DNA of 64,000 nt, taken from Squalus acanthias (lineage: Eukaryota). The stretch spans positions 43,092,001 through 43,156,000 of the forward strand of contig CM059432.1 of assembly GCA_030390025.1 (NCBI GenBank). Reading direction: 5' to 3'. The translations under genes were made by a program, and so were the position numbers. The notes under the pieces were generated by a model. That model ran no database searches and had not been told where the DNA came from. It saw only the letters and a list, made by a program, of their open reading frames with translations. Shown piece by piece: positions 4,916 through 60,907 of this stretch; the stretch's first letter is position 1; each line of letters starts with the position of its first letter.

Positions 4916-5066
4916 GTCTCTAGGGGAATCAAGGGATATAGAGATCAGGTGGGAAAGTGGAGTTGAGGTTGAAGATCAGACATGATCTTATTGAATGGCA
5001 GAGCAGGCTCGAGGGGCTGTTTGGCCTACTCCTGCTCCTAATTCTTATGTTTTTATGGTCTTATGT
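4916..5066 (+). mobile_element. CR1 LINE 3' UTR/tail, right part of the element split by Harbinger-1
   Basis: gaatggcagagcaggctcgaggggc..ggcctactcctgctcct followed by a (ttcttatg)-type tail. Confidence 0.8.
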
Positions 5067-5520
5067 TCTTCGGTCAATAGCTGGAGTAGTATGCAGTACC
5101 AGAGAATTCCACCTGAGGCAGTAAGGGTATCACCCAGCAGAAGGACAACCCCATCCAATCTACCCCCTCCTATGATTGCAGTACATCAGCTTACTTTTTT
5201 TGTAAATTGTTAGATCATTCAGTATCAAATCAGACTGGTTTGGCAGACATGGATGGTATTCAAAAGCCTGTTGCTATTCTAGAATAAAGGCAGGACAATG
5301 ATAATTGTGTTGCAGATAAATGCCAGAGACTGCCAACTTGTGCAGGTTGCACCTTTATATGAGATTGCAAAGTGTTGTAAGGACCAGGAAACCCAATTAC
5401 ACTGGCTTTTGATCTTAGGGTAAATTTAGTGATCCTGCACTGCCAACGGGGAGCCCCAGTCAATGCTGTGACTACCACAACTAGTACTGCTACTGCTACT
5501 ATGATGACTACTTTGATGTG

Positions 5521-5602
5521 ATGATGCGGAGATGCCGGTGTTGGACTGGGGTGGACAAAAATGAGAAGTCGCACAACACCAGGTTATAGTCCAACAGCGA
5601 CT
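5521..5602 (-). mobile_element. Short retroelement terminal stub (probably Penelope-like), 82 bp
   Basis: Flanked by 13-bp direct repeat CTACTTTGATGTG (5508-5520, 5603-5615). Family assignment is from recalled similarity only. Confidence 0.5.
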
Positions 5603-5980
5603 CTACTTTGATGTGGCAAGGGAGGTGAGTAGCAAAATTCAAATAACTAAATCCAGATTGGTGAGCCAGCGGTTAGCTTCAGAAGTGGCTTGGTGCAAGT
5701 CTGTAAGCTACCAAAACATTTCATAATTTAAAAATCTTTATTGAAACTCCTCTTAGCTTTTTCTGCTCCAGTGGAAATAGTCCCAGTATCTCAAGTCTCT
5801 CCTCATAACAATAGTTTATCATCCCTGGCATCAATCTGGTGAACCTACACTATGCGTGCGCTATGATTCTAATGTCCTTACTGCAGTGGGGTGTCAAAAC
5901 TACAAACAGTCCTCTAACTGTTTATTTAATAAATATTTAATATTTTGTACACATTTATCATTATTTCTTACTCTTGTAAT

Positions 5981-6130
5981 CAATGTTTCCTCTAATTTTA
6001 TTTTGGGTGCGTGGCCCCTTTAACGGACTGCATGGCCCATTCAGATTTTCGCGCATGCGCGGTTTTTCCATTTAAAAGCCGGTGAGCGGCCTGTGCGGAA
6101 CATCCAGATCGCAGCATAGGGGCAACATTG
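5981..6130. mobile_element. hAT-type MITE (150 bp)
   Basis: TIR CAATGTT.CC.CTA / TAGGGGCAACATTG. Perfect 8-bp TSD CTTGTAAT (5973-5980, 6131-6138). Inserted in a decayed minus-strand CR1 fragment. Confidence 0.85.
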
Positions 6131-6562
6131 CTTGTAATCTATGTCCACATTTATAAAACCTAAAATGCTGTTGTCCTTTTTTTATGGATTTATCCGTCTG
6201 CACTCGATATGGTAGTCTCGTGGTTATGGTACAGGACTAGCAGCCCAGAGGTTGTGAATTCTAAATTCTGAATTTAATAAATCTGGTAATTTGTGGGTTT
6301 TCACAAAAACACCAACCTGCTGGATTTCTGTAAAGACCTGACTGGGTCATTCTACCTGATCTGGCCTACGTGTGACTCCAGTACCACACTATGTGCTTCA
6401 CTCTTAATGCTCTCAGGGCAACTTCATTGTTTCTGCTTCCAAAACGTGTTACCTCACACTAATCCACATTAAATTGCATTGGCCACCTGTCTGGCTATTC
6501 CGCTAACCAACCTATGTCAACGTGAAGTCTTCAGTATTTATCAGATCGTGCTTCCTATGTTA

Positions 6563-9500
6563 GAAACATAGAAGAAAACATAGAAAAATGGGAGCAGGAG
6601 TAGGCCATTCGGCCCTCCGAGCCTGCTCCGCCATTCAATATGATCATGGCTGATCCTCTATCTCATTACCATATTCCCGCTCTCTCCCATACCCCTTCAT
6701 GCCTTTTGTGTTCAGAAATCTATCTACCTCCTTCTTAAATATATTCAGTGACTTGGCCTCCACAGCCTTCTGTGGTAGAGAATTCCACAGGTTCACCACC
6801 CTCTGAGTGAAGAAATTTCTCCTCATCTCAGTCCTAAATGTCCTACCCCGTATCCTGAGACTGTGACCCCTCGTTCTCGACCCCCCCAGCCAGAGGAAAC
6901 ATCCTCCCTGCATCCAGTCTGTCTAGCCCTGTCAGAATTTTAGATGTTTCAATGAGATCCCCTCTCATTCTTCTAAACTCTAGTTAATACAGGCCTTGTT
7001 GACCCAATCTCTCCTTATATGAAAGTCCTGCCATCCCAGGAATCAGTCTGATGAACCTTCGCTGCACTCCCTCTATGGCAAGTATATCCTTTCTTAGGTA
7101 AGGAGACCAAAACTGCACACAGTACTCCAGGTGTGGTCTCACCAAGGCCCTGTATAACTGTAGTAAGACATCCTTGCTCCTGTACTCAAATCCCCTTGCA
7201 ATGAAGGCCAACATACCATTTGCCTTCCTAACTGCTTGCTGCACCTGCTTGTTTGCTTTCAGTGACTGGTGTACAAGGATACCCAGGTCCCTTTGTACAT
7301 CAACATTTCCCAATCTATCACCATTTAAATAATACTCTGCCTTTCTGTTTTTTCTACTGAAGTGGATAACTTCACATTTATTCATGTTATACTGCATCTC
7401 CCATGTATTTGCCCACTCACTCAACTTGTCTAAATCACCTTGAAGCCTCTTTTATCCTCCTCACAGCTCGCAATCCCACCTAGTTTTGTGTCGTCAGCAA
7501 ACTTGTAAATATTACATTTGGTTCCCTCATCCAAATCATTGATATATATTGTGAATAGCTGGGGCCCAAGCACTGATCCCTGCGATACCCCACTAGTCAC
7601 CGCCTGCCACCGGTGAAAAAGACCCATTTATTCCTACTCTCTGTTTCCTGTCTGTTAACCAATTTTCAATCAATGCCAGTATATTACCCCCAATCCCATG
7701 TGCTTTAATTTTGCACACTAACCTCTTATGTAGGACTTTATCAAAGGCCTTCTGAAAATCCAAATACACCACATCCACTGGTTCTCCCTTATCTATTCTA
7801 CCAGTTACATCCTCAAAAAACTCCAGTAGGTTTGTCAAACACGATTTCCCTTTCATAAATCCATGTTGACTCTGTCTAATCCCATTGATATTTTCTAAGT
7901 GTCCTGTTATCACATCCTTTATAATAGACTCTACCATTTTCCCTACTACTGATGTTAGGCTAACCGGTCTGTAGTTCCCTGTTTTCTCTCTCCCTCCTTT
8001 TTTAAATAGTGAGGTTACATTTGCCACCCTCCAATCTGCAGGAACTGTTCCATAATCAATAGAATTTTGGAAGATGACAACCAATGCATCCACTATTTCC
8101 ATGGCTACCTCATTTAGTACTCTGGGATGCAGATTATCAGGCCCTGGGGATTTATCGGCTTTCAGTCCCATTAATTTCTCCAGCACTATTTTTTTACTAA
8201 TACTAATTTCCTTTAATTCCTCCTTCTCACTAGACCCTTGGTTCCCTAGCATTTCTGGGAAGTTATTTGTGTCCTCTTCCGTGAAGACAGAACCAAAGTA
8301 TTTGTTTAATTGCTTAGCCATTTCCTTGTTCCCCATTATAAATTCTCTCTTTTCTGACTGTAAGGGACCTACATTTGTCTTCACTAATCTTTTTCTTTTT
8401 ACGTACTTGTAGAAGCTTTTACAATCTGCTTTTATGTTCCTTGCAAGTTTACTCTCATACTCTATTTTTCCCCTCTTAATCAATCTCTTGGTCCTTTTTT
8501 GCTGAATTCTAAACTGCTCCCAATCCTCAGGCTTGCTACTTTTTCTGGCAACTTTATATGACTCCTCTTTGGATCTAATACTATCCTTAATTTCTTTTGT
8601 TAGCCATGGTTGTGCCGCTTTTCCTTTTGTGTTTTTGCGCCAGAAAGGAAAGTATAACTGTTGCAATTCATGCATTTGTTCCTTGAATATTAGCCATTGC
8701 CTATCCACCGTCATGCTTTTAATGAAGCTCTCCAAGCTATCATAGCCAACTCACTCCTCATACATTCGTAGTTTCCTTTGTTTAGATTTAGGACCCTAGT
8801 TTCGGATTAGACTACTTCACTTTCCATCTTAATGAAGAATTCTATCATGTTATGGTCACTCTTCCCTAAAGGACCCCACACAACAAGATTATTAATTAAC
8901 CCCTTCTCATTGCACAATACCCAATCTAGGATAGCCTGTTCCCTAGTTGGCTCCTCAATGTACTGGTCTAAAAAACCATCTCGTACACACTCCAGGAATT
9001 CATCCTTCACAGTATTATTGCTAATTTGGTTTGGCCAGTCGCCCATGATTATTGTAGTACCCTTGTTTCATGCATCTCTAATTTCCTGTTTGATGCCATC
9101 CCCTACATTACCACTACTGTTTGGAGGCCTATAGACAACTCACACCAATGTTTTCTGCCCCTTGGTGCTTCTTAGCTCCACCCAGTCTGATTCTGCATCT
9201 TGATCCTTTCTCATCCTTTACTAACAATGCCACCCCACCTCCTTTTCCTTTTTGCCTGTCCTTCCTAAATATTGAATATCCTTGGATATTCAGCTCCCAG
9301 CCTTGGTCACCCTGCAGTCATGTCTCCGTAATTGAAATTATATCATATCCGTTTACATCTATTTGTGTTGTTAATTCATCTACCTTATTACGAATGCTTT
9401 GTGCATTTAGATACAGTGCCTTTAGGTTTGTCTTTTTAACATTTTTAGACATCTTAACATCTTTTTGTACTATGGCCCTATTTGTCTTATTACCATTTTT

Positions 9501-19115: not shown

Positions 19116-19880
19116 GGCCCTGAAATTCGCCTCACCGGCTTGCCGCGGGGGTAAGGATCGCGCGTGCACTTGCCTACCGCGCCTGCCGTTGACCTCTGGG
19201 CCCACGGAAACTTCAGCTCCTGGGCCTGCTCCAAGTGCCGGCGCGCAGTGCTTGCGTGTCCCAGGGGCGTAGTTAGTGCGATGCGTCCCCTGGGATCACG
19301 TGGGCCATGGAGAGCCAATGGCAGCAGACCATCTTTCATTCATAGATTTGACAGGAAGACCTGTCAAATCTATGAATTGAAATCGGCCCCAAAAGAACAG
19401 CTAAACTTTAAATAAATTTTTTAAAAACCATCACATTTATAAAATAACTATAAGTTAATTAAATTAACTACTTTAAACAAAAATTTAAATTTCTGAAAAA
19501 GTTAAAATACTTTTTAACAGTGCTAAAAATAAACTTACCTTTCTTTAAAGTATCTAAAAAAGATAAACCTGTTGAAAATTTTTTAAATTATAATTAATTA
19601 ACCACTTACCTTGTTGAAAACGGGTCCTGTGCCTCCTTTTTAAAAGCGCAGGTTCTTCAATACTTACCCTCCCATAGAAACCTGAAAAAAAAACCTAAGT
19701 TTGCTGCATGCGCGCAGCCTCTACCGCGCACGCGGTTCACCTATGAACCGCTCCCTTCACCAGACCGGAAGTTCTGGTTTCCCGCGCATGCGCAGTGTAT
19801 GCAGGAAACCGGCACTTCAGGACGCCTTACGGGTGAGTACACAGTGCGTACTCACCCGGCAAGTGCCGAATTTTTGGCCC
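19116..19880. mobile_element. Harbinger-type MITE family X, copy A
   Basis: Ends GGCCCTGAAATTCG / CGAATTTTTGGCCC. Collinear with 33796-34539 and 52271-53035. TSD imperfect (TTT/TAT). Confidence 0.85.
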
Positions 19881-25939: not shown

Positions 25940-27480
25940 ATAAAAACAGAAAATGCTGGAAATATTCAGCAGGTCAGGCAGCATCTGTGGAGAGAGAAAC
26001 AGAGTTAATGTTTCAGGTCGATGACCTTTCGTCAGAACTGGATAAAGTTATAGATGTAACAGATTTTAAGCAAGTGCAGGGGCAGGGAAAAGGGGAGGGG
26101 AGGAAAGAACAAGAGGGAAGATCTGTGATAGGATGGAAGGCAGGAGAGATTAAATGACAAAAGGGATGATGGTGCAAGGCAAAAGGAGGTGGTAATGGGA
26201 CAAGTTAAGAAACAAAAGATGAGTCTAGATGAGGTGTAAATGGGAATGGTAGAATCATCAATAGCTGCCATCTGAAATAATAGGGGCAGGGATTATGGTC
26301 TGAAATTGTTGAACTCAATGTTGAGTCCAGAAGGCTGTTAAGTGCCTAATCGAAAGATGAGGTGTCATTCCTCGAGCTTATGTTGAGCTTCGTTGGAACA
26401 GTGTAAGAGGCCGAGGATGGAGAGGTCAGAGTGAGACTGGAGTGGAGAATTAAAATGACAGGTGACCGGAAGCTCAGGGTCATGCTTATGGACTGAATGG
26501 AGGTGTTCCGCAAAGCAGTCACCCAATCTGCGTTTGGTCTCCCCAATGTAGAGGAGACCACACCGTGAGCAGCGAATACAGTATACTAAATTGCAAGAAG
26601 TACAAGTAAATCGCTGTTTCACCTGGAAGGAGTGTTTGGGGCCCTGGACAGTGGGAAGGGAGGGCAGGTGTTGCATCTCCTGAGCTTGCAGGGGAAGATG
26701 CCGTGGGAAGGGAAGGGGGTGTTTGGGATGATTGAGGAGTGGACCAGGGTGTCACAGAGGGAATGCTGAAAGGGGAGGTGAGGGGAAGATGTGTTTGGTG
26801 GTGGGGTCATGCTGGAGGTGGCAGAAATGGCGGAGGATGATCCGTTGAATGTGGAGGCTGGTGGGGTGAAAGGTGAGGACAAGGAGAACCCTATCATGGT
26901 TCTGGGAGGGAGGGGAAGGGGTGAGAGCAGAAATGCGGGAAATAGAATGGACACGGTCAAGGGCCGTGTCAACTACGGTAGAGGGGAATCCTCGGTTGAG
27001 GAAAAAGGAAGACATATCAGAAGCACTATTATGGAAGGTGGCATCGTCAGAGCAGATGTGATGGAGAGGGAGAAACTGGGAGAATGGAATAGAGTCATTA
27101 CAGGAAGCGGGGTGGGAGGAAGTGTAGTCCAGGTAGCTATGGGAGTCAGTGGGCTTATAGTGGATGTTTGTCAATAGCCTATCTACAGAGATGGAGACAG
27201 AGAAGCCGAGGAAGGGAAGGGAAGCATCGGAGATGGACTATGTGAAGGTGAGAGAATAGTACTATTTGGAGAAAAAGTAAATGAAATTTTCTAGTTCAGA
27301 ACGAGAGCAGGAAACGGCGTCAATACAGTCATTAATGTACCGGAAAAAGGGGTGAGGGAGGGGACCTGAGTAGGACTGGAACAAAGAATGTTCCACATAT
27401 CCCACGAAAAGGCAGGCATAGCTAGGACCCATGTGGTTTCCCATAGCAACACCTTTAATTTGGAGGAAGTGAGTGGCATC
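25940..27480 (-). mobile_element. Penelope-like retroelement, 3' part (RT C-terminus, GIY-YIG endonuclease, terminal repeat)
   Basis: GVAMG..GPSYACLFVG..FRYINDC (RT), HYKPTDSHSYLDYTSSHP, FTCTSCNLVYCIRCSRCGLLYIGETKRRL..EH (GIY-YIG). Interrupted by the provirus. Confidence 0.92.
26003..26039 (-). ncRNA. Minimal type I hammerhead ribozyme motif (Penelope terminal repeat), degenerate
   Basis: Minus strand agtt-CTGACGA-aaggtcatcgacct-GAAA-catt-aact. Confidence 0.55.
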
Positions 27481-28666
27481 TGTAGCACCAGCTTTCTGGC
27501 TATTTTTATGAATCATATTTTATATCCAAAACCCAAGAAAGAACTGTACTGTTGGGTAAGCTTGTGGGAGTGGCTTAGGGAATAGGATTGCAAGCCAGGC
27601 TACCCTGACTAAGGTGCATTCATATGCAAATGGCCATCTCACACTGACAGGCTGGGTGGAAGGGAACCCAGGCCGATTGACATCATCACCATCTAACATG
27701 ATTACTGGGAACAATACCCCTAGAGGTAACTCAGAGACACTATGCCCTCACATCAATAAAGCTCAGTCCCAACCAAAACTGGTGGAAGGCAGGAGATGGC
27801 CAGGCCATTGTCTTCCAGGAGATAAGCTAGTTAAGAAAGTTCGGTTTGAGATTGAAACCCATTACCTGCTAATGGGGGCCATCAACTCAGGAAACGACAG
27901 ACATCCAGTAATCAGCACTCATTGTCTCTCCAGGTGCCAGGCCTGGGAGCGGGGAAACGGAATATCATTTTACACAAAGTTTTCAAAGGTCATGAGTTAC
28001 TCCAGGCCACAGGAGGGTCCAGACAGATCACCTGAGTCAATACATCGATCAGCATTGACGGGAGAAAAGGTGTTGGGTTTTGGGTATATCAGGAGCCGTT
28101 CGGGGGCTGCTCTCTCTCTCTCTTCTCCTCGGCATCAATCTACAGCGAGTCTCCCGAGTGGGGCTTGGCTCGACGGAACACCGCCAGAAGCTGAGCGCTG
28201 CTCTTCATCCCTCATCAACGGACCTCGACTCAAACTGGAACTTGGATATCACGTCGGCGGTATGGAACCAGGAGCGAGACGTACAGGAAGAAGCTGCAAG
28301 CAAGACAACGGACAATCGGGGTGAGCATTTTGCCTGCACCTACACATTCACAAGACCACTTAGCTGTGTGAGGGGGTGACTGTAAGTCCCAACCAAACCT
28401 CAGAGGGGTTTAGTGCTGGGGTCCTGTGTTAGTTTATTTCACGGGAGGGTTCTTTTATTAGACTGTGGTAATTTAGCACGGTATGGCTTGTTGGACAAGC
28501 CAGGATTGTATTGTTTTGTACTGTTGCGAGTGTCATTGTTAATCCTATTAAACACAATACAGTTGAGCTCAAATGGGTGTCCGAGTCTGATCTGTCCATA
28601 TAATCCCTATCGTCCAGAACTTGTAGTAAGAGGTGTGTTGTCGGTGTGCCCGAGAAAACCCTTACA
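27481..28666 (+). repeat. 5' LTR (1186 bp)
   Basis: TGTAGCACC...CCCTTACA. Direct repeat of 33358-35281. Confidence 0.95.
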
Positions 28667-28671
28667 GAGAT

Positions 28672-28689
28672 TGGCGACCGCTGGCAGGA
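28672..28689 (+). promoter_or_regulatory. Primer binding site TGGCGACCGCTGGCAGGA
   Basis: TGG start 5 nt after the LTR end. Primer tRNA not resolved (Arg- or Ser-like). Confidence 0.75.
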
Positions 28690-28710
28690 TGATAGATTTT
28701 GTGTCAGATC

Positions 28711-30385
28711 ATGGACAGTTTTAAGGGCAAGAGGCCCGGAATGGAGGATAGGATTTCCTCCTAGGTGTTCAATAAGATTAACGTGTCTCAGTCATGGGTG
28801 CTGGAGATGCTGCGCTCTGAGAGTCCCCGGGATAGGGCTGCAGAGTGGACAGGTAGCAGGGATCACAGGAAGTCAAAGGAGAAAGCGATTTGGCTCCTGT
28901 GTCTGCAGAAGCAAGTTCAACTGCTCAGGGAGTGGGTTGAAAAGCTAGGGAACGAACTTAAAGAGTCTGAGGATAAGTCAGACGCGAGGGAGATAGTCGG
29001 GAGTAGACTATTAGAGGAACTGCACGAAGAAAGGCAGGAAAGACGTGCGCAAGAAGGGACCTCCCGTAACACGGTTGAATACCTACAGTGTCAGGTTACA
29101 GAGGCCAAGTTAAACCAGCAGGCCCTACGGGAAGAAAATGCGAGGCTAATAGCAACAGCTGACAGCTTGGAGGGCCAGCTAAGGGATATAAATATAGCTT
29201 ATAAAGTAGCCAGGAGTAGAGGCTATGAGGAAGCAGATCACGGACAATGTAAGGAAAGGATCCAAAAATTGACCCAAGCCTTGTCCGGAGCCAGAGGTAT
29301 GGCCTGTTTAATGTCACCGGGGGAAACCGGGGTAGACTGGGACAAGGAGGGTCAGGAGCCTGATGATAGGGCTCAGGACAGGGAAGTCCGACAGGCGCCT
29401 GAAGCGCCACCGAGACCAATGTGGCCTCTGCGGCAGCAGAAGTCCGGTCCACCCGCACCAAACGGTGACCAGGGCCCACTGCAGAGCGATTACGTGGTCC
29501 CGTACACAATCCCTCAGCTGCAAGCCATGCTATCAGGGACGCCCAAGCTCAAACGGGACAGGGACCCCTCAGTTCACTTTATGGAAGTAGAACAGGTAGG
29601 GGGGGTCAACGGATGTAGTGAGGGCGAGATCAACAGGCTGATGCTGTTCTCCCTTGATGGGGGATTGTATCAGAGCTTATCTGCAGCCACAAAGCTGGGA
29701 GGGGGCACCACAGAGGGGTTGAAAGACGAGATCCTGAGGGCCTTGGGGCATACCCAGGGTAGCCCGTTCTTACAAGTAGAATGGACCAGGCAGCTGGCCG
29801 GCGAGGCACCAGTTGCATTCGCGGACAGGCTATGGCCTGTGTACATAAAGGCAACTGGAGGGACGCTTGACCGCGCGCAGTTGATAGGGGCCCCCAGGAA
29901 TCACTGGCTCAGGGTCCTTGTGGCGAACAGCTTGCCAAGGATCAGGGTCAGGGCAGAAGCGTGGTTTGACCCCAAGGACCTCGTGAATATGGAGGCAGGC
30001 GTGCTCAGAAAGCTGAGTCTAGCCTTTAAGGCCGATTCCGGGAAGGAGGTCAAATCAAAGGGAAGGGTCCACAAAATGAAAGCCAGTGTGGGTAATAGGA
30101 AGGAATGGCGACAGGAAAGGGTTAGTACTGACACGTCCAGGACTAGTTTCGGGTGTGGGAAGACGGAACACTGGAGGCAAGACTGCCCGTTCCCAAAAGG
30201 GGGGAGACCAGTCCCAGGGGGTCCTCCAGTGCAAACCACGTGTTACAGAGGCAGAGGGGACGACCGACGAGTCGTTCGAGCTTCTGGTGGCCGCCCTACG
30301 GAAGACTATGGGGAAGGACAAAGGCAAGTTAGACGCTGCCGTGAGCAGTGAAGCGCCTTCCGCGCCCGTACGCCCCCCACCCTGA
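28711..30385 (+). pseudogene. gag: gag (coiled-coil N-terminus, capsid-like core, degenerate CCHC knuckle, PSAP)
   Basis: ATG 28711 is in frame with the 528-aa ORF, with a stop at 28762. Knuckle SFGCGKTEHWRQDC (30145-30186, first Cys TGT>AGT). Inferred 1-nt frameshift ~30235 leads to ...SEAPSAPVRPPP-TGA. Confidence 0.8.
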
Positions 30386-32372
30386 CTAGAACGCGCCCAG
30401 CCTGAGTACCTGTGCCCGCTCACGTACGATGAGTGGGGCAGGCCCTGTGTAAAGATGGGGGTGAAGACGGTGCAGGGGAAATATTTGGTGGACACCGGGG
30501 CTTCCAGAACAGTGGTCCATTCAAAAAACCCGACCAATTCACCCTGGTCTAGCAGGGTCCCATTCAGGCTCGTGGGGTTCACAGGGAATGAGCAGGCTGG
30601 GGCAATCTCAAAACCCCTGGCCATAGAACTAGGATCCCTCCATACCACGTGGGAGTGTGTCCTGATACAATGGGAACAGCCAGGATCAGGAGTCCTCGGG
30701 GCTGACTTTATGTTAGCCAGCCGAGTGATTGTGGATTTAAGGAATCACTGCCTATGGGGTGCAGCGGATTCAGATAAAGCCGAGGAGGTGCTAGTGATCC
30801 CAAGAGATAGGGAAGGAAGGGGTAGTGTGTGTACTATGAAGCCCAAGGGGAATTACGACCTAGAGCAGTTGGTCTGTAATACCCCAGCCAAGTATCAGGT
30901 GAACGTGCGGGACAACCTCGCCGCATTCGCCACTCACAAGCACGACTGTGGCAGGGTGACAGGGGTAGAAGTCAGGGTGCAAGGGGACCCCATGTCACGG
31001 CCACAGAAACAGTACAGTTTCCCCAGAGAGGCAGAAGCCGACTTAGAGACGGCACTGGGATCCCTCGTAGAACAGGGGGTGTTGAGGCCGATAGCCACCC
31101 ACGTAAACTCACCACTTTGTCCAGTTAAGAAGCCCGACCAGTCGTGGAGAGCCACCGTGGACTATCGAGTGCTCAATAAAAATATCCCAGCCTGCGCGCC
31201 CACAGTCGCGGCTGTTGCTGACCTCATAGGGAGCATTCCAGCGACCGCAACCACGTTCACAGTGCTGGATATCTCCAATGGGTTCTGGTCGGTTCCCCTC
31301 AAACGGGAAGACCAGTACAAATTTGCCTTTACATTTAAAGGGCAACAGTACACCTGGACATGCCTTCCCCAGGGGTTTCACAACAGCCCCTCCATATTTC
31401 ACCAGTGTATGGCCGACGCACTCAAAGGCTTCAGCCGACCCCACCAGCTAATTCAGTATGTGGACGACTTGCTTTTGTTCTCCGCGGTGGCGGAGGAGCA
31501 CAGGCCACTGCTGGACGAGCTGTTGAGGCTGTTACGGGAGACAGGGTTTAAAGTGAACTCAAAGAAAGCCCAGATCGGTCGGGAGGAAGTCAAATTCCTC
31601 GGGCTGACCATGAGGGCTGGTGAGCGAGCGATAGATGAGGCAAAAAGAAAGGCAGTACAGGAGTTACCAGCGCCCAAGGATGTAACAGGGGTAAGGTCCT
31701 TCCTGGGACTCACAGGGTACTGCAGAGACTTTATAGAGGGTTACGCAGCCACGGCAGCCCCTCTGCTTCAGCTCCTCCGCAAGGGAGTCGGGTGGGAGTG
31801 GGACCAGAACTGCCAGGAAGCGTTCACCCGCCTCAAGGAGAATTTACAGACGGCACCCGCGTTGGGAGCCATTTACAGTAGTGAGGAATTCCTTTTGGAG
31901 GTAGCAGCCAGCGGGGATAGCTTGAGCGCGGTGTTGCTCCAGGAGCGGCACGGCAAGCTAGGACCCGTGGTCTACTCCTCAAGGGTTCTCACTGAGGTAG
32001 AAAGGGGATACTCCAACTGCGAGAGGCATCTCCTAGCCACGTACTGGGCCGTAAAGCTCTCCCAGCTCTTTACGGAATCATCCCTGATAACTTTACGAAC
32101 TCACCACACCCCCACTCAGATGTTGTTAGACGGGAGGATAAAGGACGGAACAGTGAGCAGTTCCCGTATTGCTCGCTGGACTTTATTGCTCTCGCAAATG
32201 AATCAGAGTGCAGGGGTTGACAGAGCCAAAGCTGGCTATGAATTTAATCTACCCAGGGACTGCCCATGCGTGTACTGTAGAAGGGGTGTGGGACGTAGGT
32301 GTGGTATTCCGGGCCGGGATACACCCGACAGGCCGGGACATCTCCGTAGAGGGGTCCAGTTCGGTGGTGGGC
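30386..32372 (+). pseudogene. pol: pro-pol: aspartic protease, RT, tether (inactive RNase H), start of second RNase H; integrase deleted
   Basis: GRP..LVDTGAS..VLGADF (protease). NSP..PVKK..WR..VDYR..LDISNGFW..LPQGFHNSP..YVDD..FLG (RT). Tether LEVAAS/ERHLLA/LRTHH. After an apparent 2-nt deletion ~32200, RDISVEGSS. Confidence 0.92.
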
Positions 32373-32384
32373 AGGTCACAGCGG

Positions 32385-33150
32385 CCAGCACCGGTATACC
32401 GGGTAGAAAACATTGGCGTCCTGAGGATAGGGGTGCACGTGCGGCATAATGGGGCCCCACCGTTTGTAATAAAGTGGGAGCACGCCATGACCGGCACTGA
32501 CCTCAAGGGGTGCCAGAGCAGGGGCGCGCACGTGGTGTTGTGTCCCCAGCACCTGAACGCGTTCGATCGACCGGTGTGTGGGTTTGAATCGGAAAGTGCA
32601 GAGCCCATCAAATGCACCATGGAGGTGATGGCCCAGGGCCACGTTCCACCCCAGATAGCATACACGAACAACGGACGTACTGCGTCACGACGAGTGTGGA
32701 CCAGTATCGGGTACACCACGACACTTGGTGCCCTGTCACTGACAAAACTTTCTGCTTCAAACCCCACACAGAGGTTCAGGTGGCGCAAGGGCGCATCATC
32801 CCCATTTCAGATTTCACCACGGTACACTCACGGTGAACGACACGGTACAGGACCTGCAGCAATACGTAACACGGTTCAGGTATGAAATTCCTCCTCTGCC
32901 TGAACACCTCACAAAACTAATGAAGAAAGTTGAACTGTCTCAAAAACACTTCTACACCCTCGAATAATGGAACAGGGAAGTGGGGGAAGAAATAGAAGAA
33001 ATGGCTTCCCCGCCCTGGTGGGACTTTGATTTGAATGTTGAGATCCCTCCATGGATCCGAATAGTTTCACACACAATGGTAGTAGTAAAACTATTCATGG
33101 TGTTGTACCTGTTAAGGTTATCCTGTAAAAAGAGAAGGAAAGCACTCTGA
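32385..33150 (+). pseudogene. env: env, C-terminal half of a Cys-rich fusion glycoprotein with TM anchor
   Basis: Reconstructed across two frameshifts and one stop: DLKGC..VVLCP..VCG..IKC..TYCVTT..WCP..TFCF..VNDT..helical LTKLMKKVELSQKHFYTLE..PPWW..hydrophobic IVSHTMVVVKLFMVLYLL followed by CKKRRK. Confidence 0.75.
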
Positions 33151-33346: not shown

Positions 33347-33357
33347 AAAGGGGGGAA
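33347..33357 (+). promoter_or_regulatory. Polypurine tract AAAGGGGGGAA
   Basis: Directly abuts the 3' LTR TG. Confidence 0.9.
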
Positions 33358-35281
33358 TGCAGCATCAGCTTTCTGGCCATTTTTATGAATCATATTTTAT
33401 ATCCAAAACCCCAGAAAGAACTGTACTGTTGGGTAAGCTTGTGGGAGTGGCTCAGGGAATAGGATTGCAGGCCAGGCTACCCTGACTAAGGTGTATTCAT
33501 ATGCAAATGAACATCTCACACTGACAGGCTGGGTGGAAGGGAACCCAGGCCGATTGACATCATCACCATCTAACATGATTACTGGGAACAATACCCCAAG
33601 AGGTAACTCAGAGACACTATGCCCTCACATCAATAAAGCTCAGTCCCAACCGAAACTGGTGGAAGGCAGGAGATGGCCAGGCCATTGTCTTCCAGGAGAT
33701 AAGCCAGTTAAGCAAGTTCGGTTTGAGATTGAAACCCATTACCTGCTAATGGGGGCCATCAGGAAACGACAGACATCCAGTAATCAGCACTCATTGGCCC
33801 AGAAATTAAAGACTGAGTGTTGACGCGGGGGTAAGGCTTCCCCGCGATATCTCACTCCGCGCCTACCTTTTTCCTCCGGGCCCACACGAACATTAGTTTC
33901 AAGGCTGCAGCTGTGCAGTGCTTGCGTGACCCAGAGACGCAGTTAGTTCATGCGAGCTCTGGGATCACGTGATTCAGTTAGAGCCAATGGCAGCACACCA
34001 TCTTTCATTCATAGTTTTGACAGGAAGACCTGTCAAAGCTATGAATAATATACCCCCCCAAAAGAACAGCTAAACCTCAATTAAATTTTTAAAAAAGCCA
34101 TCACATTAATAAAATAAGTATAGTTAAATAAATTAACCACTTTAAACAAAAAATTAAATTTTTGAAAAAATTTCAAATCTTTTTAAAAGTTATAAAAATA
34201 AACTTACCTTTCTTTAAAGTCTCTAAAAAAGATAAACCTGTTGAAAAAATTTTAAAATAATACTTAATTAACTACTTACCTTGTTAAAAGAGGGTCTTAC
34301 GCCTCCTTTCTTTATGTGTAAAATCTTCCATGCTTACCTGCGCGTTCAAAGCACTAAGTGCACTGCATGCGCACAGCCTGTAGCGCGCACGCGGTTCACC
34401 TAGGAACCGCCCCCTTTTGAATTCACGAAGTGCCGGTTTCCCGCGCATGCGCAGTGCATGCTGGAAACCGGCAATTGGAGACCTAAAACGCGAGAGTACA
34501 CAGTGCGTACTCTCGCGTATTAGGTCTAATTTTCGGGCCATTGTCTCTCCAGGTGCCAGGTCTGGGAGCGGGGAAACGGAATATCATTTTTCACAAAGTT
34601 TTCAAAGGTCATGAGTCACTCACAGGGGGGTCCAGACAGATCACCTGAGTCAATACATCGATCAGCATTGACGGGAGAAAAGGTGTTGGGTTTTGGGTAT
34701 ATCAGGAGCTGTTCGGGGGCTGCGCTCTCTCTCTCTTCTCCTCGGCATCAATCTACAGCGAGTCTCCCGAGTGGAGCTCGGCTCAACGGAACACCGCCAG
34801 AAGCTGAGCGCTGCTCTTCATCCCTCATCAACAGGACCTCGACTCAAACTGGAACTTGGATATCACGTCAACGGTACGGAACCAGGAGCGAGACGTACAG
34901 GAAGAAGCTGCAAGTGAGACAACGGACAATCGGGGTGAGCATTTTGCCTGCGCCTACACATCCACAAGACCACTTAGCTGTGTGAGGGGGTGACTGTAAG
35001 TCCCAACCAAACCTTAGAGGGGTTTAGTGCTGGGGTCCTGTGTTAGTTTATTTCACGGGAGGGTTCTTTTATTAGACCGTGGTAATTTAGCACGGTATGG
35101 CTTGTTGGACAAGCCAGGGTTGTATTGTTTTGTACTGTTACGAGTGTCATTGTTAATCCTATTAAACACAATATGGTTGAGCTCAAACGGGTGTCCGAGT
35201 CTGATCTGTCCATATAATCCCTATCGTCCAGAACTTGTAGTAAGAGGTGTGTTTTCGGTGCGCCCGAGAAAACCATTTACA
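33358..35281 (+). repeat. 3' LTR (contains MITE 33796-34539)
   Basis: TGCAGCATC...CCATTTACA. Collinear with the 5' LTR once the MITE is removed. Confidence 0.95.
33796..34539. mobile_element. Harbinger-type MITE family X, copy B, inserted in the 3' LTR
   Basis: TIR GGCCCAGAAATT / AATTTTCGGGCC. TSD ATT. Empty site (ctcATTgtctctcc) present in the 5' LTR. Confidence 0.93.
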
Positions 35282-35570
35282 CGTCAAAGGAGAAATTGTT
35301 CAATGTGAGAACAAGTTCAGCCAGGCAGAGGAGGGTGGTGGTGGATGGGGACTGGTTGGGCCTCTGTTCAAGGAAGAAGCGGAGCGCCCTCAGGCTGTCC
35401 TGGTGGGGGATGGAGGTGTAGAGGGATTGGACGTCCATAGTGAAAAGAAGACGTTTGGGGCCAGGAAACTGAAAACTGTCAAAGTGGCGGAGGGCGTCGG
35501 AAGAGTCGCGGATGTAGGTGGAAAGAGACTGGACGAGGGGAGAAAAAATAGAGTCGAGATAGGAAAAAAT
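35282..35570 (-). mobile_element. Penelope RT, upstream part (continuation of 25940-27480)
   Basis: YIRDSSDAL..LLFTMDVQSLYTSIPH..LAELVLTLNNFSF. Confidence 0.9.
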
Positions 35571-36149
35571 TATTAAATTTTTAAAGATTTGTTGGTTTAT
35601 CTTTAAAATGTGCATGGAGAGCTTGCGTGAACAGATCAGAAGTAAAGCCATGCAGGTGACTGATGGCGTAGTTTCATGGAAAGTTTCGACAGAATTTTGT
35701 CATTTTTCCCGAGGAAATTCGTGTGTAACTGATCTACAGCAATTTTATGCCAAAACATTGCTACCAGCAAATTTACTCGAGCATATGCGCCGCTCCCTAG
35801 TTCCAATCACCAAAATCATACTTAGCTCATTAACATAGCTCCACCATCCATGCAAAAGACCAGAGAATGTGAGTTTCCTGCATTTACGTCAGTTCTGATG
35901 GGTGTAAATTTACGCCTAAATTTTATGCACAGTAGAATCTGAAGTCACTATTTCTGATGGTTTACAGCAAAGTTTTGAGCTATTTTGTTCTGTTTCTCCT
36001 TTGTGAGACCTCTATTGTATTTTCTATATCTTTGAATGCCTTTTTATGGTGTCAGAAAAATGTTACATTAAAAATTAATGAGAAAAGCTTCCACAATTGC
36101 ATTTTCTTAAACATGCCGTGCTTAATGTGCACAAATGATAGTTTGATGG

Positions 36150-52270: not shown

Positions 52271-53035
52271 GGGCCAGAAATTCGGCTCCCTGGCTTCCCG
52301 CGGGTGCAAGGATCGTGCGCGCACCTACCTACCGCGCCTGCCATTGACCTCTAGGCCCGCGGGGAATTTGGCTCCTGGGCCTCCTCCAGCTGCCGGCGCG
52401 CAGGGCTTGTGTATCCCAGGGGCGTAGTTAGTGCGATGTGTCCCCTGGGATCACGTGGGCCATGGAGAGCCAATGGCAGTAGGCCATCTTTCATTCATAG
52501 ATTTGACAGGTCTTCCTGTCAAATCTATGAATACAAATCGGCCCCAAAACCTCCCTAAAACTACACATAAATTTAAAAAAAACATCACATTTTTAAAATA
52601 ACTATAAATAACATAAATTAACTATTTTAAACAAAAATTAAAATTTTTGAAAAAAATAATTACACTTTTTAACAGGGCTAAAACTAAACTTACCTTTCTT
52701 TAAAGTAATTAAAAAAGATAAATCTGTGAAAAAAATGTTTAAATTTGAATAAAATCACCACTTACCTTGTTAAAAGAAGGCCTTGCGCCTCCTTTTTCAA
52801 AGTGTATCTTCTCCGTGCTTACCCTCACGGAGGAACCTGTAAAAAAAAACGAAGTGCGAGGTCCACGCGCAGCCTCTCTGGCATGCGCGTTCGACCTCTG
52901 AACCCCTTCCTTCAGGGGAACGGAAGTGCCGGTTTCCCACGCATGCGCAGTGCATGCAAGAAACCGGCACTTTCGTTCCGTCCACGGGTGAGTACATAGT
53001 GCGTACTCACCCGTGGCGAGCCTAATTTCTGCCTC
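52271..53035. mobile_element. Harbinger-type MITE family X, copy C, inserted in CR1
   Basis: GGGCCAGAAATT / AATTTCTGCCTC. TSD ATT (52268-52270, 53036-53038). Confidence 0.9.
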
Positions 53036-54483: not shown

Positions 54484-55026
54484 GTAGAGAGAAAGAATGT
54501 GAGCCTGTAATGGTGTTATGATTGAACACTGAAGCTCCATTCGGTTGAGTGTGACGACATCTGCTGCAAGTTTATTGACTAATGTTGACTACTGGAAAAG
54601 CACAATTATTATGCATTTAGTACGTGAGTTGCAGACTAAAATAAACCACCTGATCTCCTGTCTCAATATATCAATAAATATGAAATTTCACAGCACTGAT
54701 TTAATTTATTGGACTGGATTTTGCTTAGACTTGCACGTACCCATAGGACTGGATTTTGTCATTGGGGGTGGGTTGGGGTCGGGTCAGGTGGTCGGCGGGT
54801 CCGGACCCCGCCTCCAATGTGAGGCTGGACAAATGAGCAATTTTGCCTGAATTGGGCACTTGATTTCCAGTGTGTGGGAACCCCTGGCCCAATGAGTCTT
54901 TTGATGCTGAAACTCACCTCTGATGACATCATCTATGCAGCTGCATTTAAGGCCTGCAAGCAGCCTTGGTTCTTTTTCAGCCTTTCAACTTTAGCATAAT
55001 GCTTCTGAGGGATTCGTGCTCCAACC

Positions 55027-57033
55027 ATGTCCAGCACCAGACCAAAGTGTGCATCCCGTTTCGATGAGAACTCCCTCCAAGCTCTGGTGGAGGGAGCAAG
55101 AGCGAATAGGGAAGTGCTGTTTCCTTCTTCAGGGAGGAAAAAGCCTCCCCAACAGACCAAAGCTGTGTGGTTGCAAGTGGCACAGGAGGTGAATGCAATT
55201 TCAATGTGCAGCAGAACCTGGCTGCAGTGCAGAAAGAGGTTTCATGACCTTCTCCTCACAGGAAAAGTGAGTATTCCATCCACATGACCCTCAATCTGAT
55301 CCCCAGCGCCTCTCATCACCAGCACTCTGCTTTGTCAACCTCCTCCTCCACGTCCACTTCACCCTTACATCCCTGCACCCTTAACCATTCCCTCTCTCTG
55401 TATGTTCACATTCACTTAACTATTCGACTATGCAGCCCTCATACTCCCTATCACTGTGATGCAATGGCAACAACTTACAACACACAGGGAGGGCCCTTGG
55501 TCTTGGCACCTCACTCCATCTCTCTGTCCTTCTAAGCATCTATGCTATGGATTCTCTACACTCACTCCTTCATTCTCACTCAAATTCCACTTGTGTCCCT
55601 CATTGCAGGAAAAGAGAGCCCACAATAAGAGGGAGAGGGCGAGGACAGGAGGAGGGCCACCCTCAATAGCCCAGCTCACCACTGCAAAGGAGGCAGCCCT
55701 GGAGATCGTGGGAGTCGAGGAGGATGCGCAAGTGAGGGACGGACAGACGGGCGCATCAGAGCAAGCAGGTGACAGAATAGTTTTTCATCTCTCTCATTGA
55801 CATTGCATGAGTGACTGATTTTGATTTTAATGCTCTAACAGATTGACTTATGATCATCTGCACAATTCAATGTGCATGCAACGTTTATCTCACATGTCTA
55901 ACTCTTTCCTTTACTCTCCCACAGGACCATCGACAGCCCCCCTCCCCACTGTCCAGGGGGAACAGCCTGAGCCCCCAGACTCCTCAGCGGAAGCTGCAAA
56001 CTCTGAGGGTGCAGCGTCAGCAGAATTAAGCGCACCCAGCACCAGCGCAGACACTCACACCTTGGTGGGACCTTCGGGACATAGAGTAGTGTTGTCACCT
56101 GGTGTATCACAGCTCACAAGTGAGCATCAGCAGATGGTGGAGACAGGGACAGCAGTGGAGAGTCCTGGTCGGAGGGCGCAGGTCTCTCCCAGCTCGGCTC
56201 AGCTGCATGTCGACTCTGTGCCTCCGGGTCCATCCAGAAGGGGAGCGGTGCTGGAACTCCAGGAGCAGGTGCAGGAGTCTCTGGCAGGTTTTGTCTCCAG
56301 GGTCACTGTGAGTGTGGAGCGAATGGAGGAGTCCATCGCGAACATGAGCAGAGCCTTTGTGGAGGCGTTGGTGCATGAACGCATCACCAAGGAAAGGATG
56401 GCAACCTCCGTGGAAAGGATGGCTAGCTCCGTGGTAAGGCTGGCTACTGTAAAGGAGAGGATGGCTATGGTAGAGGAGAGGATGGCAACGGCCATGGAGG
56501 AGCTTAGTCGCCAGGGTCTTGAAAACATGGTCATTGTTCAGAATAGACTGACATCTCTGGAGGAGCAATGGTCAGCTATTGAGCAGAGAAACCAGACCTT
56601 CATGGAAGTCCTCTGGAGTAGGACTTCCAGTGCAGAAATGGGTCCTTATGGTCCCCCTGAAGTGCAGCAAGGTGCTGTCAAGCCACTTGCTAGCTCTGAA
56701 GTGGGGCTGACCCATGAGAGGGATGTTGGTGGCAGAGAACAATGAAGTGGAGGCTCCTCTCTAAGTGCTCACACGACCATGCCGCTGCAGAGCCCTCGGT
56801 CAGAGCCCCACCAGAGTCCTCACCCAACTGAGATTGGAGTCTCAGCCCCTGCACAGCTGCAGGAGCAGCAGACTGTTGCCGAGCCCTCACAGGCTCGCAA
56901 CCCCAGAGGATGCCCGCCAAAGGTGTCGAGGCAGGAGCAGCAAGAAAGTGAGCAAGGGGCCTCCACATCTGCTGAAGCCACAGGGGAAGCACCACGTAGG
57001 AGCACGCATAAGAGGAAAATAAAGCACAAGTAG
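55027..57033 (+). pseudogene. Harbinger Myb/SANT gene (exons 55027-55266, 55609-55768, 55925-57033) with one nonsense codon
   Basis: Same splice structure as copy 1. GGA>TGA at 56743-56745, and the frame continues to 57033. Confidence 0.85.
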
Positions 57034-57291
57034 TCACAAGGGTAGTCACTTGGCTGTTCTGTTGTGTTTATTTTTGAAAAGACAACCGTGAATTTATATG
57101 ATAAAAAAACTTGATGGCAAACTGTTGAAGTTGTGGGCTGTGTCATTTCGCAAATGGGACTTCCACATTGAGGGCTTAGGGCGGCTTGCAACTGTCAGTA
57201 TGGTGTTCAGAGTGATAGGAATCCGCAAGTTCTTGTCCATTGTCGATGGTCTGGTAAGAAGCTGTGAGTCAAAAGTGTTTGATTGGGCAGC

Positions 57292-58553
57292 CTAAGCAAA
57301 TCTGTCCAAGATGAGTGCATCCCTTGCATCCTGGGCAGCAATGTGCTCGCGTGCAGCTGCGGCTGGTTGATGCGCCTCCGCAAGCTGTTCGTTGTCGCTC
57401 TCCTCCTCCTCCTCCTCCTCATCATCATCCTCGTCCTCATCTGAGGAGGTTATGCGATGAGCCACTTGTACCTCAGGCAGCTGCAAGTCACGATGCTGTG
57501 CCATGTTGTGAAGTGCACAGCAGACCACGACCATTCTGGAGACCCTGGCTGCTGATTACTGCAGGGCTCCACCTGATCTATCAAGGCATCTGAATCGCAT
57601 CTTCAGTAAGCCGATGGTTTGCTCGATTATGGATCTGGTGGAAATGTGGCTGGAGTTGTAGCACTCCTCAGCTTTGTTGGATGGCCTCCTCAACGGCATC
57701 ATTAGCCACGTCTTCAGGGGATAGCCGTTGTCTCCAAGTAGCCATCCGAAAAGTTGGTCTGGCAGACTGAAGAGCGGAGGCACACTAGGCTGCCGCAGGA
57801 TGAAGGAGTCATGGCAACTGCCAGGGTACTTGGCGCCAACATGCAAAATTTCCTTCTTGTGGTCACACACCAGCTGCACGTTGAGGGAGTGGAAGCCCTT
57901 GCGGTTGACAAAAATACCTGAATTGTGATGGGGTGCCTTAAGGTCCACATGTGCGCAGTCAACGATGCCCTGCACCCTTGGAAAGCCTGCCAGATTAGCT
58001 AATCCAACCGCACGCGCGGTTACACTTGCTTGATCCTTGGAGAAGTTGATGTAATTGTGCACGATGGCAAAGAGGGCATCGGTTACCTGCATGATGCAAG
58101 TGTGTGCGGCCGCCTTGGAGATGCCGCTGATGTCTGCTGTTGATCCCTGGGATGAGCCTGAAGCAAAAAAGTTGATTGCGGTGGTGACTTTGACGGCCAC
58201 TGGTAAGGGGTGTCCACCCGCTCCTCTGGGCTCCAGGTCTTGCTGCAGCATTGCGCAGATGTTGCCCACTACCTCTCACAAAAGTCTGAGCCTCCTTTGG
58301 CACTGCTGCTCAATCATGTCGAGGTAGCTCATCCTCTGTCTGTAAACACTGTTTTGGGGTAACTCCTGCGGCGACGTGCTTCCATGCGCTGGCGCCTTCT
58401 GGCCTGTGCAGCTTCAGGTGGGTGAGCAGCAGCTTGGAGCTCCTGTTGTTGCTCCTGCTGTTGGTGCTGCTGTTGTTCCGGGTTCTGCTGCTGCCGCGGC
58501 TGGTCTTCGTCCGAATCTGATGTCCAGGAGCAAAGGAAATAAATGGTTCCCAT
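57292..58553 (-). pseudogene. Harbinger DDE transposase, disrupted
   Basis: GIVDCAH..NRKGFHS..GSCHDSF..LLGDNGY..IEQTIG. Frameshift ~58350 and stop at 57556. Confidence 0.92.
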
Positions 58554-60529
58554 TCTTCTGGTATATACCTCAGTTGAGGAAGCGCTCAGTCAAGGTGGGG
58601 AGAGGGGTTTCCCAGGAGGTCACACTGCAGATGGATCTCAGCCTCAAAACTTTCACAATGAGTAGACCTGCTAAAAGTTCTCCCAGACCTGAGAAAACAA
58701 AGTTCTGCCACCTGCAAATGATCAGTGTTGAAAAGCCCTTTTTAATGGTGGAGCTGCAGCTGTTAGTAAGCAATCTACTTGTGAGCCCGCCAGGATTAAC
58801 TGGCGTGTTCCAGAGGAGACGTGCAGCACGTGGGGAAATGTGTTAAACTTAGAAAGGCCTCTCAAAATGGCATTATAGAGGCAATTAAGTGCTTGTTAAG
58901 GGCCTATCCCGCCTCTTGGAGGCAGGATCGAAACGGGGTCTGAAAGCCTGCTTTTTGGAAAATTGCTCAGAGACGGGTTGGAGGCGGGATCGGAGCTGCC
59001 CGCCATTTTTGCGAATTTAACACCTCACACGCCTCCAAACCCGCCTCCTCGGGCCTGGCAAAATCTAGTCCATAGACTTTCCATGAGCTTTTGCAAGGCA
59101 AGTTGCTGTCAGCGTGGCATCCAAATGGCACGGCGCCCTCTACAGGGCATCTGGGACCTGTGCGAAAAGGGCAAGCAACTGTGTAGCTCTTTAACTAATC
59201 AGATTGAAGAATTGTTAATGAGCAGCGCAGAGTCTGAACCAGGAATTGTAAGTTCGAATAGTGAATTTAATGTCAAATCAGTTACAGAAAGAAAAATAAA
59301 GAGAGGGAAAGAAAGATTGGATTAAGAGTGAGAGAAAAAAGAGAGAGAAAAAAAAAATTATTTTCATTTTAAAATTAATCTCCAACAATAATTAAAATCT
59401 GAAGGAATGAGACTCCACATTTGTTAAATTAATTTTCAGTGCCTCAGAGATTATTTGGCAGTAATTAAGACTTAGCACACTGTTAAAAGGGTACTTAGAC
59501 TGGAATGACTTGCCTTAACTTTTTGTGGCAAGTTTAGTCCGTATCTATGATGTCAGTTCTGGAAATTTACACTGTTCAATACAGCGAGATGTCTTTTTTG
59601 CGCAGCTTACGGAGGAACGGCACATAATGGACAGTAACTTTCAGATTTTCGTGTTTAAATTGCACATGTGCACTTGCCGGAAGTTACTGTCCGATTTGCA
59701 CATAAATAATGGTGAGCGCTGTTAGCCTCAACATTATTTTCACAGCAAAATCCGACCCGTTATCATTTTTATTTAGGTTTTTTTTCAGTTCGTAAAGATA
59801 TATCAATCAAAATTCTGTTTTTAACATTTTAACTGTTAGTAAAATTTTTGTATTGTCTCAGGAAAAGACTCCAGCTCTGGAAATAGAGATGCTGAGTTTC
59901 TGCAGGGTGCTGTAAACTCCAATTACAGTACATAAGCTAATATTTCAGGCAAATAAGAATAATAGCGTTCATTTCTAAGATTGCATGGAGTGTAAGGTGA
60001 TGTTGTTTACCTGCTTTTCTCTTTCATTTTGATTAACTACCAACAATTACAATTAAAGTCAGGCTAGTATTACATAAGACATTCAGATATTTAAAAAAAA
60101 TACCTCAATTGGATTTTGGAAAGAGCTCCTTTGTTACTCTGTGTACAGAATCAACATTATCTGGAGAACACTACAGATGCTCTGCATAATTTAATATCTT
60201 GAAACGTGTTAAGTTATATTCATCCTGTATTATGTTTAATACTGCTCATCCAAATTTGTAGGGAGTTGATCATTTATCCCCGAAGTGTTAAAACTCCATT
60301 TACAAAACATACTGGTCATGTTCTTGTTGTGAACAAGTTGTAACTTCAGCCAACAAAGCTGAGACTCATCAGGATTTGTCCTTGTTTACAAGTTATTGTT
60401 AAATCTTACTTTGTGTGGTGAGTTGGAAAGAAAATATTTCCTGTTAATAGTATGTTTCATTCATTCTGTGTTTCAGCTAGCCAATTACCAGTTGCATTGA
60501 AATAAATAATGGAGTAGTAAATATAGTCC

Positions 60530-60730
60530 CATAGCCCTTCCATTAGATGCTGAAAAGGCATTCAATAACGTTGAATATCTGTTCCATACCCTGGAGAAAT
60601 TAGGCTTCAGCTCCCATATCATCAATTGCATAAAAACAGCTCGCGCAACTTTTTTGTAACTTTAACTACATCAAATGGTATCATCTTACATTCATTTGAG
60701 TTGGATAAGGCCATCTGACAAGGATTCATT
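60530..60730 (+). mobile_element. Ancient L1-clade RT fragment
   Basis: Translates LDAEKAFNNVEYLFHTLEKLGFS..IINCIK (L1-type LDAEKAFD..YLF..L.K.GF). Confidence 0.6.
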
Positions 60731-60907
60731 GCAGAGAATTGCCCGTTGTGCGTGCATCTCTGGAAATTGCAGGAACACGCTCCATGATTTTCCTTGGAGC
60801 CGCTACCTGCAAATTCCTGATAAGCACTTCAGGCTTCACAAGACACACGTCAGAAAATTGGCCCTTATTTGTGGCCCCGATGACTCCAAGGTAAGCACCT
60901 GTATAGC

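Follow-up and report, generated by a model that had tools for sequence, protein, structure and literature searches.

Results

A provirus with the rear part of an envelope gene lies within the window

The window, a 64,000-nucleotide stretch of Squalus acanthias DNA, carries on its forward strand a provirus with a long terminal repeat (LTR) on either side, between which lie gag, pol and the remains of an envelope gene (env). Its features are as follows.

27481..28666, + strand: 5′ LTR (TG...CA), 1186 bp, 95.6-95.9% identical to the 3′ LTR by self-BLAST
28672..28690, + strand: primer-binding site (PBS), first six bases the same as in the PBS of snakehead retrovirus (SnRV)
28765..30382, + strand: gag, open reading frames 28765-30351 and 30080-30385
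30383..30385, + strand: single in-frame stop before pol, ending a 101-aa frame directly upstream of pol
30386..32204, + strand: pol, with protease, reverse transcriptase (RT) and tether (the old RNase H), from Pfam domains
32205..32369, + strand: final part of the tether, with what is probably the first strand of a second RNase H (open reading frame 32202-32885; by eye)
32365..32370, + strand: internal deletion junction, where the sister contigs listed either end (32365-32369) or begin (32368)
32370..32672, + strand: env piece 1, Cys-rich beta region, 81% identical to P0003 and 70% to P0097
32675..32827, + strand: env piece 2, Cys-rich beta region, 55-71% identical to sister proteins
32830..32964, + strand: env piece 3, linker, NDT sequon and start of an HRB-like helix, 64-71% identical to sister proteins
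32968..33150, + strand: env piece 4, with the rest of HRB, a Trp-rich membrane-proximal segment, the anchor from ~33055 and a short basic tail
33347..33357, + strand: polypurine tract, read directly from the sequence
33358..35281, + strand: 3′ LTR, split by an unrelated 742-bp repeat at 33797-34538

The LTRs are flanked by 4-bp sequences that match at three of four positions and likely represent a target-site duplication. The PBS may be that for tRNA-Arg. The front of gag appears coiled-coil-like by eye, its zinc knuckle is degenerate (zf-CCHC_2, E 0.0095, below the cut-off), and a frame change seems to be present near its 3′ end. The 101-aa frame in front of pol may represent the true end of gag, with the gag-pol junction likely crossed by stop read-through. 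One in-frame stop between gag and pol is also found in SnRV (L001) and in a second contig, L002; the junction stop (30383-30389) is TGA in the window and TAG in both of these, and the sequence context of the window's TGA presumably favours read-through. Pfam matches within pol comprise RVT_1 (E 2e-35), RT_RNaseH_2 (E 9e-21) and RVP (E 0.003). The pol frame breaks near 32204, and sister contigs from 4/4 runs differ in length at 32202-32204. Both RNase H domains are present in the relatives P0008 and P0015; the stub of the second domain in the window gave no significant match in phmmer comparisons with 11 full Pol proteins.

At ~32369 the second-RNase-H-like start recognized by eye runs straight into the middle of env. 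No contig spans this spot among the matches listed, tblastn searches found neither integrase nor the front of env anywhere in the 64-kb window, and the internal region measures only 4691 bp. Missing at the junction are the rest of RNase H, integrase and the env front, ~3 kb by estimate, the lost env front corresponding to the signal peptide, Ig-like domain, cleavage site, fusion peptide and HRA. Since the internal deletion took the integrase and the env front, only the rear of env remains. The window copy is a dead, internally deleted endogenous retrovirus (ERV) that likely makes no functional protein, as it lacks signal peptide, cleavage site, fusion peptide, HRA and integrase. The deletion could have occurred after insertion, or an intact relative could have helped the shortened element to be copied.

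The K2P distance between the LTRs is 0.034 over 1172 sites, equivalent to ~8 My at a mammalian rate or ~78 My at a ten-fold slower shark rate (rates as given in the available part of PMC4422223). The age of the insertion is consequently poorly fixed. The 742-bp repeat inside the 3′ LTR is 73-78% identical to copies at 19140-19853 and 52389-53014. The provirus itself sits inside an older RT-like remnant on the minus strand (27262-27480 and 35282-35699), which may be Penelope-like by motif. Long direct repeats at ~880-9466 and ~55000-63769, ~54.1-54.3 kb apart and 76-98% identical, are candidates for repeated elements or an old segmental duplication. No tRNA genes were found in the 64-kb window, no RNA source was listed for the stretch, and no run contained half of its words (best 0.39), a result that is not informative on expression.

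The env remnant consists of four out-of-register pieces

The remnant comprises four env pieces of 101, 51, 45 and 60 aa distributed over three frames between 32370 and 33150 (+ strand). The reading frame changes near 32673 and again near 32828, and a stop follows at 32965-32967; these are the places where a sequence-only reading of this DNA had put two frameshifts and a stop. The same reading had reported a Cys ladder, an NDT sequon, two Trp-rich motifs, a hydrophobic anchor and a basic tail, and all of these are present: seven Cys codons occur at 32511, 32541, 32577, 32613, 32681, 32729 and 32753 in the contexts it had given, the sequon is found at 32836, the anchor reaches a top 19-residue hydropathy of 1.77 starting at 33055, and both Trp-rich motifs are followed by a basic tail with its Cys at 33124 and a stop ending at 33150. 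The order of a Cys-rich beta region, HRB, single anchor and short tail is retained. While the env remnant proposed by that reading is real, it had been overlooked that the remnant is the rear part only, starting at the deletion junction near 32370 and covering residues 465-704 of a 754-aa relative. The reported lack of gamma-type motifs also holds, with CX5-7CC and QNR absent from every forward frame of the remnant. The ~230 residues before the anchor contain no gamma-type CX6CC or immunosuppressive domain (ISD), and none of the five env relatives examined possesses CX6CC or [LI]QNR.

On P0097, an unbroken natural protein from Logan, the four pieces align in order at residues 171-268, 273-323, 325-369 and 373-427, with identities of 70, 55, 64 and 42% when pieces 1-4 are compared separately. 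They also lie in order on P0004, and pieces 1-3 are 67-81% identical to a protein of the sawshark Pristiophorus japonicus. In the comparison with P0079, an intact relative, each piece scored above 100/100 shuffles. Sister copies were checked in contigs from four public runs representing three organisms. Among the matches listed, these contigs differ in length near 32670 in 4/4 runs and near 32826 in 3/3 of the runs covering that point, and where the window has its stop (32965) they carry a different base in 3/3 covering runs. This confirms that the env breaks of the window copy are not common to its sister copies; the reconstructed frame is kept both in these contigs, which lack the breaks, and in P0097.

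The env family is predicted to adopt an F-type fold

P0079, which stands in for the window protein, was modelled with AlphaFold2 on an 18-sequence alignment. The model has a mean pLDDT of 56.6 and a pTM of 0.41, with pLDDT values of ~70-88 over most of residues 380-600, the region of window pieces 1-2, and low values at 1-180 and 601-638. In Foldseek searches against the PDB the best match is hMPV F (E 2.9e-11) and 40/40 of the best rows listed are paramyxo- or pneumovirus F proteins, with TM-scores of only 0.2-0.3 by query length. VIA aligned P0079 residues 189-600 with Langya F over 319 residues (Z 12.5, rmsd 10.8). Among the predicted viral structures of BFVD, granulovirus F ranks top (E 6e-14), accompanied by other F-type glycoproteins, and feline foamy Env matches at E 2e-5. 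The walleye epsilonretrovirus Envs Q9WHI8 and A4GTG3 match the P0079 model as well in BFVD (E 1e-11 and 7e-10). An Atlas search with P0079 was uninformative (0.82, cluster without a name).

Piece 1 of the window maps to P0079 residues 457-539, within the F-aligned range of 189-600, and would by this relative's model be equivalent to F domain I/II. Piece 2 maps to residues 557-598, and a helix at 632-666 in the model is the counterpart of the HRB-like helix of piece 3. A furin-like site is found in 4/4 full-length relatives examined and is followed in the P0079 model by long helices. P0004 and P0079 are 30% identical (E 7e-20), and the F fold of the window env is carried over from the P0079 model by homology at about this level.

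At the level of sequence profiles the link to F is not seen. No match to PF00523 was obtained for the window pieces or their relatives, and Pfam searches with the window env pieces returned nothing relevant. The sole F-family match among 19 relatives is Baculo_F in 1/19 (E 0.0011, 18.1 bits; cut-off 24.1), and neither PF00523 nor PF12259 is matched above its cut-off. Searching PDB sequences with either P0004 or the family profile gave nothing but coiled coils and noise, with no F protein. Based on the model, the env family is predicted to represent an F-type fusion glycoprotein. The likeness to a class I fusion protein proposed by the sequence-only reading is borne out by the structural matches of P0079. 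Its F-type assignment stands by way of this model, but a match to the PF00523 profile was not obtained, and the choice it left among RSV, paramyxovirus and baculovirus F cannot be narrowed: paramyxo-, pneumo- and baculovirus F score alike and there is therefore no preference among the three.

Full-length relatives carry an additional N-terminal region

An exhaustive search with P0004 identified 21 proteins at E <=0.001 including P0004 itself, the last being a chance match as judged by its Pfam domains. Named relatives come from Pristiophorus, Heptranchias, Heterodontus, Rhinoraja, Chiloscyllium, Scyliorhinus, Xenopus and Pelodytes and span several shark orders, a skate and frogs. Full-length members possess ~180 extra N-terminal residues. 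A profile of this env front matches antibody V domains down to E 1e-6, the best single stretch being weaker, and finds Ig clusters in Atlas at 0.89; it reaches no Pfam cut-off. By these profile matches the extension probably holds an Ig-like domain. A probable Ig-like front lies in P0095 (residues 76-186), P0085, the C-terminal part of P0006 and P0078, and possibly in SnRV Env (L001:6221-6421). IgV-like receptor-binding domains occur in gamma-type Env according to the available part of bioRxiv 10.1101/2024.03.17.585361.

The 9.1-kb contig L002 contains at 1440-8889 a class III-like gag and pol together with an env of the window's family, which matches the family profile at E 7e-13. Its RT pairs with that of P0008 in a clade separate from the window. 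P0075, P0005 and P0084 combine env pieces of the family with host gene models (cadherin-related 5-like, GPR139-like and an fbxo15 isoform), for which exonization and annotation artefacts are candidate readings. Chiloscyllium genomes that were negative in a lokiretrovirus screen also contain env fragments of the family (P0089, P0090, P0091 and P0100), which fits a non-Loki carrier.

The reverse transcriptase points to class III, probably on the SnRV side

The window RT carries the motif PQG, as do the SnRV, foamy, gamma and epsilon rows, and its best PDB matches are MLV and foamy RT, ahead of Ty3. By visual comparison the corresponding lokiretrovirus motif is PFG in 8/8 sequences seen. An RT+tether tree was built from 25 rows after removal of Ty3/gypsy, L003, two viral rows on very long branches and redundant entries, and a wider RT tree contained 50 rows including 10 Ty3/gypsy-like ones; the trees carry no lokiretrovirus rows. 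In the 25-row tree the window joins unnamed elements and others from coelacanth and Xenopus at a support of 93/91, with SnRV next to this group at only 59/82. The foamy rows make up a separate clade (100/100) with the window outside, and grouping the window RT with foamy was not rejected (p-AU 0.34). When added in the 50-row tree, Ty3/gypsy rows attach inside the window's group, which may reflect long-branch attraction or a deeper branch.

L001 was recognized as the snakehead retrovirus genome by three motifs that match the published SnRV row. No similarity was detectable between the Gag proteins of the window and SnRV, and SnRV Env compared with the window env family profile remained below significance (hhalign probability 1%, E 0.055). 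A model of SnRV Env (L001:7631-9190) retrieves paramyxovirus F with a best E of 1.5e-5, a result that is partly circular because the model was built on the alignment of the window env family. In a wide VIA search its best match is foamy Env (Z 7.2), the rest being coiled coils, and this is not above background. Words specific to the window RT found no match in IMG/VR. Overall, the element is likely class III and probably lies on the SnRV side, while not being a proven member of any named clade.

An intact env is conserved across three shark orders

Three intact env proteins of 739-754 aa are found outside the window: P0079 (Chiloscyllium punctatum, GCC29952.1), P0095 (Scyliorhinus torazame, XP_072333160.1) and P0096 (Heterodontus francisci, XP_067889054.1). 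At ~28% identity to the window's family they are distant kin and therefore not the product of the window element. Across three shark orders they share 85-88% identity with no gaps, and 17/17 ectodomain Cys residues are invariant. Their HRB/membrane-proximal part is 95-98% identical and their tail only 47-62%. In contrast, two Pristiophorus env paralogs are 61% identical and gapped. Under neutrality the probability of a stop-free frame would be ~1e-6 at 0.05 substitutions/site x three lineages, the divergence being assumed. The pattern of these sequences fits purifying selection since before the three orders split, and would make the three proteins candidates for a domesticated F-type fusogen. 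Recent independent infections by one virus may alternatively account for their conservation.

Discussion

The remnant in the window is very probably the decayed rear env of a dead, internally deleted shark ERV, likely of class III (SnRV/foamy-side), with a predicted F-type envelope. A broader history, for and against which we see about equal grounds, would make F-type env ancestral in retroviruses and keep it with an Ig-like head in SnRV-side class III elements, one such env, captured by an ancestor of galeomorph sharks, having stayed whole in today's bamboo sharks, catsharks and horn sharks.

Were the element a lokiretrovirus (lokiortervirus), or did it belong to a lineage placed between Loki/Odin and the canonical retroviruses, it would be the first in cartilaginous fish, PMC7947760 having scored 0/6 Chondrichthyes genomes, and its F-like env would be the expected Loki env. 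This had been the first reading of the element and was dropped after the RT motif comparison. Loki elements are marked by an F-like env together with a Ty3-like tether in the sections of PMC7947760 that were available, the strong RT_RNaseH_2 match of the window tether is joined by a resemblance to the Loki-Xla tether by eye, and the coiled-coil-like front of Gag, the attachment of gypsy rows within the window's RT group and the origin of the top Pol matches from Xenopus and Latimeria, both Loki hosts, point the same way. Set against this are the PQG motif in place of PFG and an RT core nearer by eye to the SnRV row. The motifs of the Xenopus relatives P0006 and P0094 are not among the Loki supplement sequences seen, and the published Loki-Xla Env is shorter and by eye without the extra N-terminal domain. 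We regard a lokiretroviral origin as unlikely and favour a class III element.

Still less probable is a recent capture of the F-type env from a negative-strand RNA virus or a baculovirus-like donor by a single shark ERV family. The best structural matches are indeed paramyxo/pneumovirus and granulovirus F, stronger than foamy Env, but identity to those F proteins is merely 8-14% and homologous env is distributed over several shark orders, a skate and frogs and stands behind a different class III pol in L002. The partly circular SnRV Env model retrieves F and foamy Env as well, and foamy Env is itself F-like in the accessible part of PMC11468914. A very improbable reading concerns the window copy alone, which might be a retained functional fragment of a host gene such as an infection inhibitor made of a truncated HRB or anchored in the membrane. 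Truncated envs have been co-opted in other vertebrates; here, two frameshifts and a stop absent from sister copies, the lack of a signal peptide and env front, a broken pol and a gag that is probably broken too largely refute such a role.

F proteins work by furin cleavage that releases the fusion peptide; HRA becomes extended, and the folding back of HRB yields a six-helix bundle. By analogy, the ancestral env would have been a trimeric type I membrane glycoprotein that furin cleaves just before its fusion peptide, with the N-terminal Ig-like domain binding the receptor, a task for which paramyxoviruses use a separate attachment protein. Its HRA would stretch out to insert the fusion peptide, and HRB, the helix that the window remnant retains, would then fold back, giving a six-helix bundle and merging the membranes. 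An Ig-like head supplying receptor binding would agree with the view of F as a minimal scaffold that takes receptor-binding modules, as put forward in the available portion of PMC11468914.

F-like envs have already been published for lokiretroviruses (PMC7947760), foamy viruses (PMC11468914) and errantiviruses (bioRxiv 10.1101/2023.10.26.564294), as seen in the accessible parts of these papers. Within a partial coverage of the literature, we found no paper giving SnRV-side ERVs an F-type env and none on an F-type shark env or its domestication. If the modelled fold is correct, the env family would add a further retroviral lineage, besides foamy and loki, with a paramyxovirus-F-type fusogen. 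It would favour an old age for F-type env in retroviruses, with the gamma/beta TM replacing it later, which is one open scenario in PMC7947760 and PMC9040795. If the three-order shark gene is orthologous, it would allow the conversion of an F-type viral fusogen into a host gene to be tested on a concrete example, and if domestication is true, it would be a very old domesticated paramyxovirus-F-type env and a syncytin analogue invisible to gamma-type screens.

Comparison with known systems

The predicted fold of P0079 residues 189-600 resembles paramyxo/pneumovirus F (hMPV 7sem, Nipah 6t3f, hPIV3 1ztm and RSV 3rki) and baculovirus F. In F proteins, the 'class Ib' of Fernandez et al. 2024 (PMC11468914, available part), a cleavage site is followed by the fusion peptide and HRA, then by Cys-rich beta domains, HRB, an anchor and a tail, and by the model of its intact relative the env family would be laid out in this order. 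The env family differs in its 8-14% identity, the lack of a PF00523 match and its encoding as a retroviral env; its full-length members add the ~180 N-terminal residues with the probable Ig-like domain, and it has the Trp-rich membrane-proximal segment.

SnRV and clade Huo ERVs were described by Xu et al. 2018 (PMC6001957) and the lineage I CmiERV of elephant shark by Han 2015 (PMC4422223), SnRV-like ERVs in cartilaginous fish thus being known since 2015, as far as the accessible parts of both papers go. The window element is similar to these in RT motifs, 42% RT-core identity, a weak sister position, the gag-pol stop that we infer and the start of the PBS, and SnRV Env appears weakly alike in being F-like with an Ig-like front. 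In contrast, the grouping with SnRV is unsupported at 59/82, Gag is not detectably similar, env falls below profile significance and the junction stops differ. SnRV Env is also much longer (1134-aa ORF) and is followed by accessory ORFs.

Lokiretroviruses have in common with the element a predicted F-like Env and a well-preserved tether, and probably the dual RNase H (PMC7947760, in the sections available). Their CGIN1-like integrase has no counterpart in the window copy, from which integrase is deleted. Foamy Env and the F-type Env of errantiviruses represent, as here, an F-type fusion core on a reverse-transcribing element, according to the parts of PMC11468914 and bioRxiv 10.1101/2023.10.26.564294 at hand. 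Foamy Env differs by its leader peptide and an inserted receptor-binding domain, with foamy RTs forming a separate clade, while errantiviruses are invertebrate Ty3/gypsy elements. The gamma-type/syncytin-like Envs of sharks (bioRxiv 10.64898/2026.05.06.723177; PMC12813294; bioRxiv 10.1101/2021.11.23.469661) are likewise retroviral envs in cartilaginous fish, some of them endogenized. As described in the available parts of these reports, the screens (Proudley et al. 2026; PMC12813294; Chen et al.) used gamma-type queries or required ISD and CX5-7C. They are not expected to report the window's family, since it lacks these motifs; shark env screens keyed to ISD and CX6CC would miss this whole class of env.
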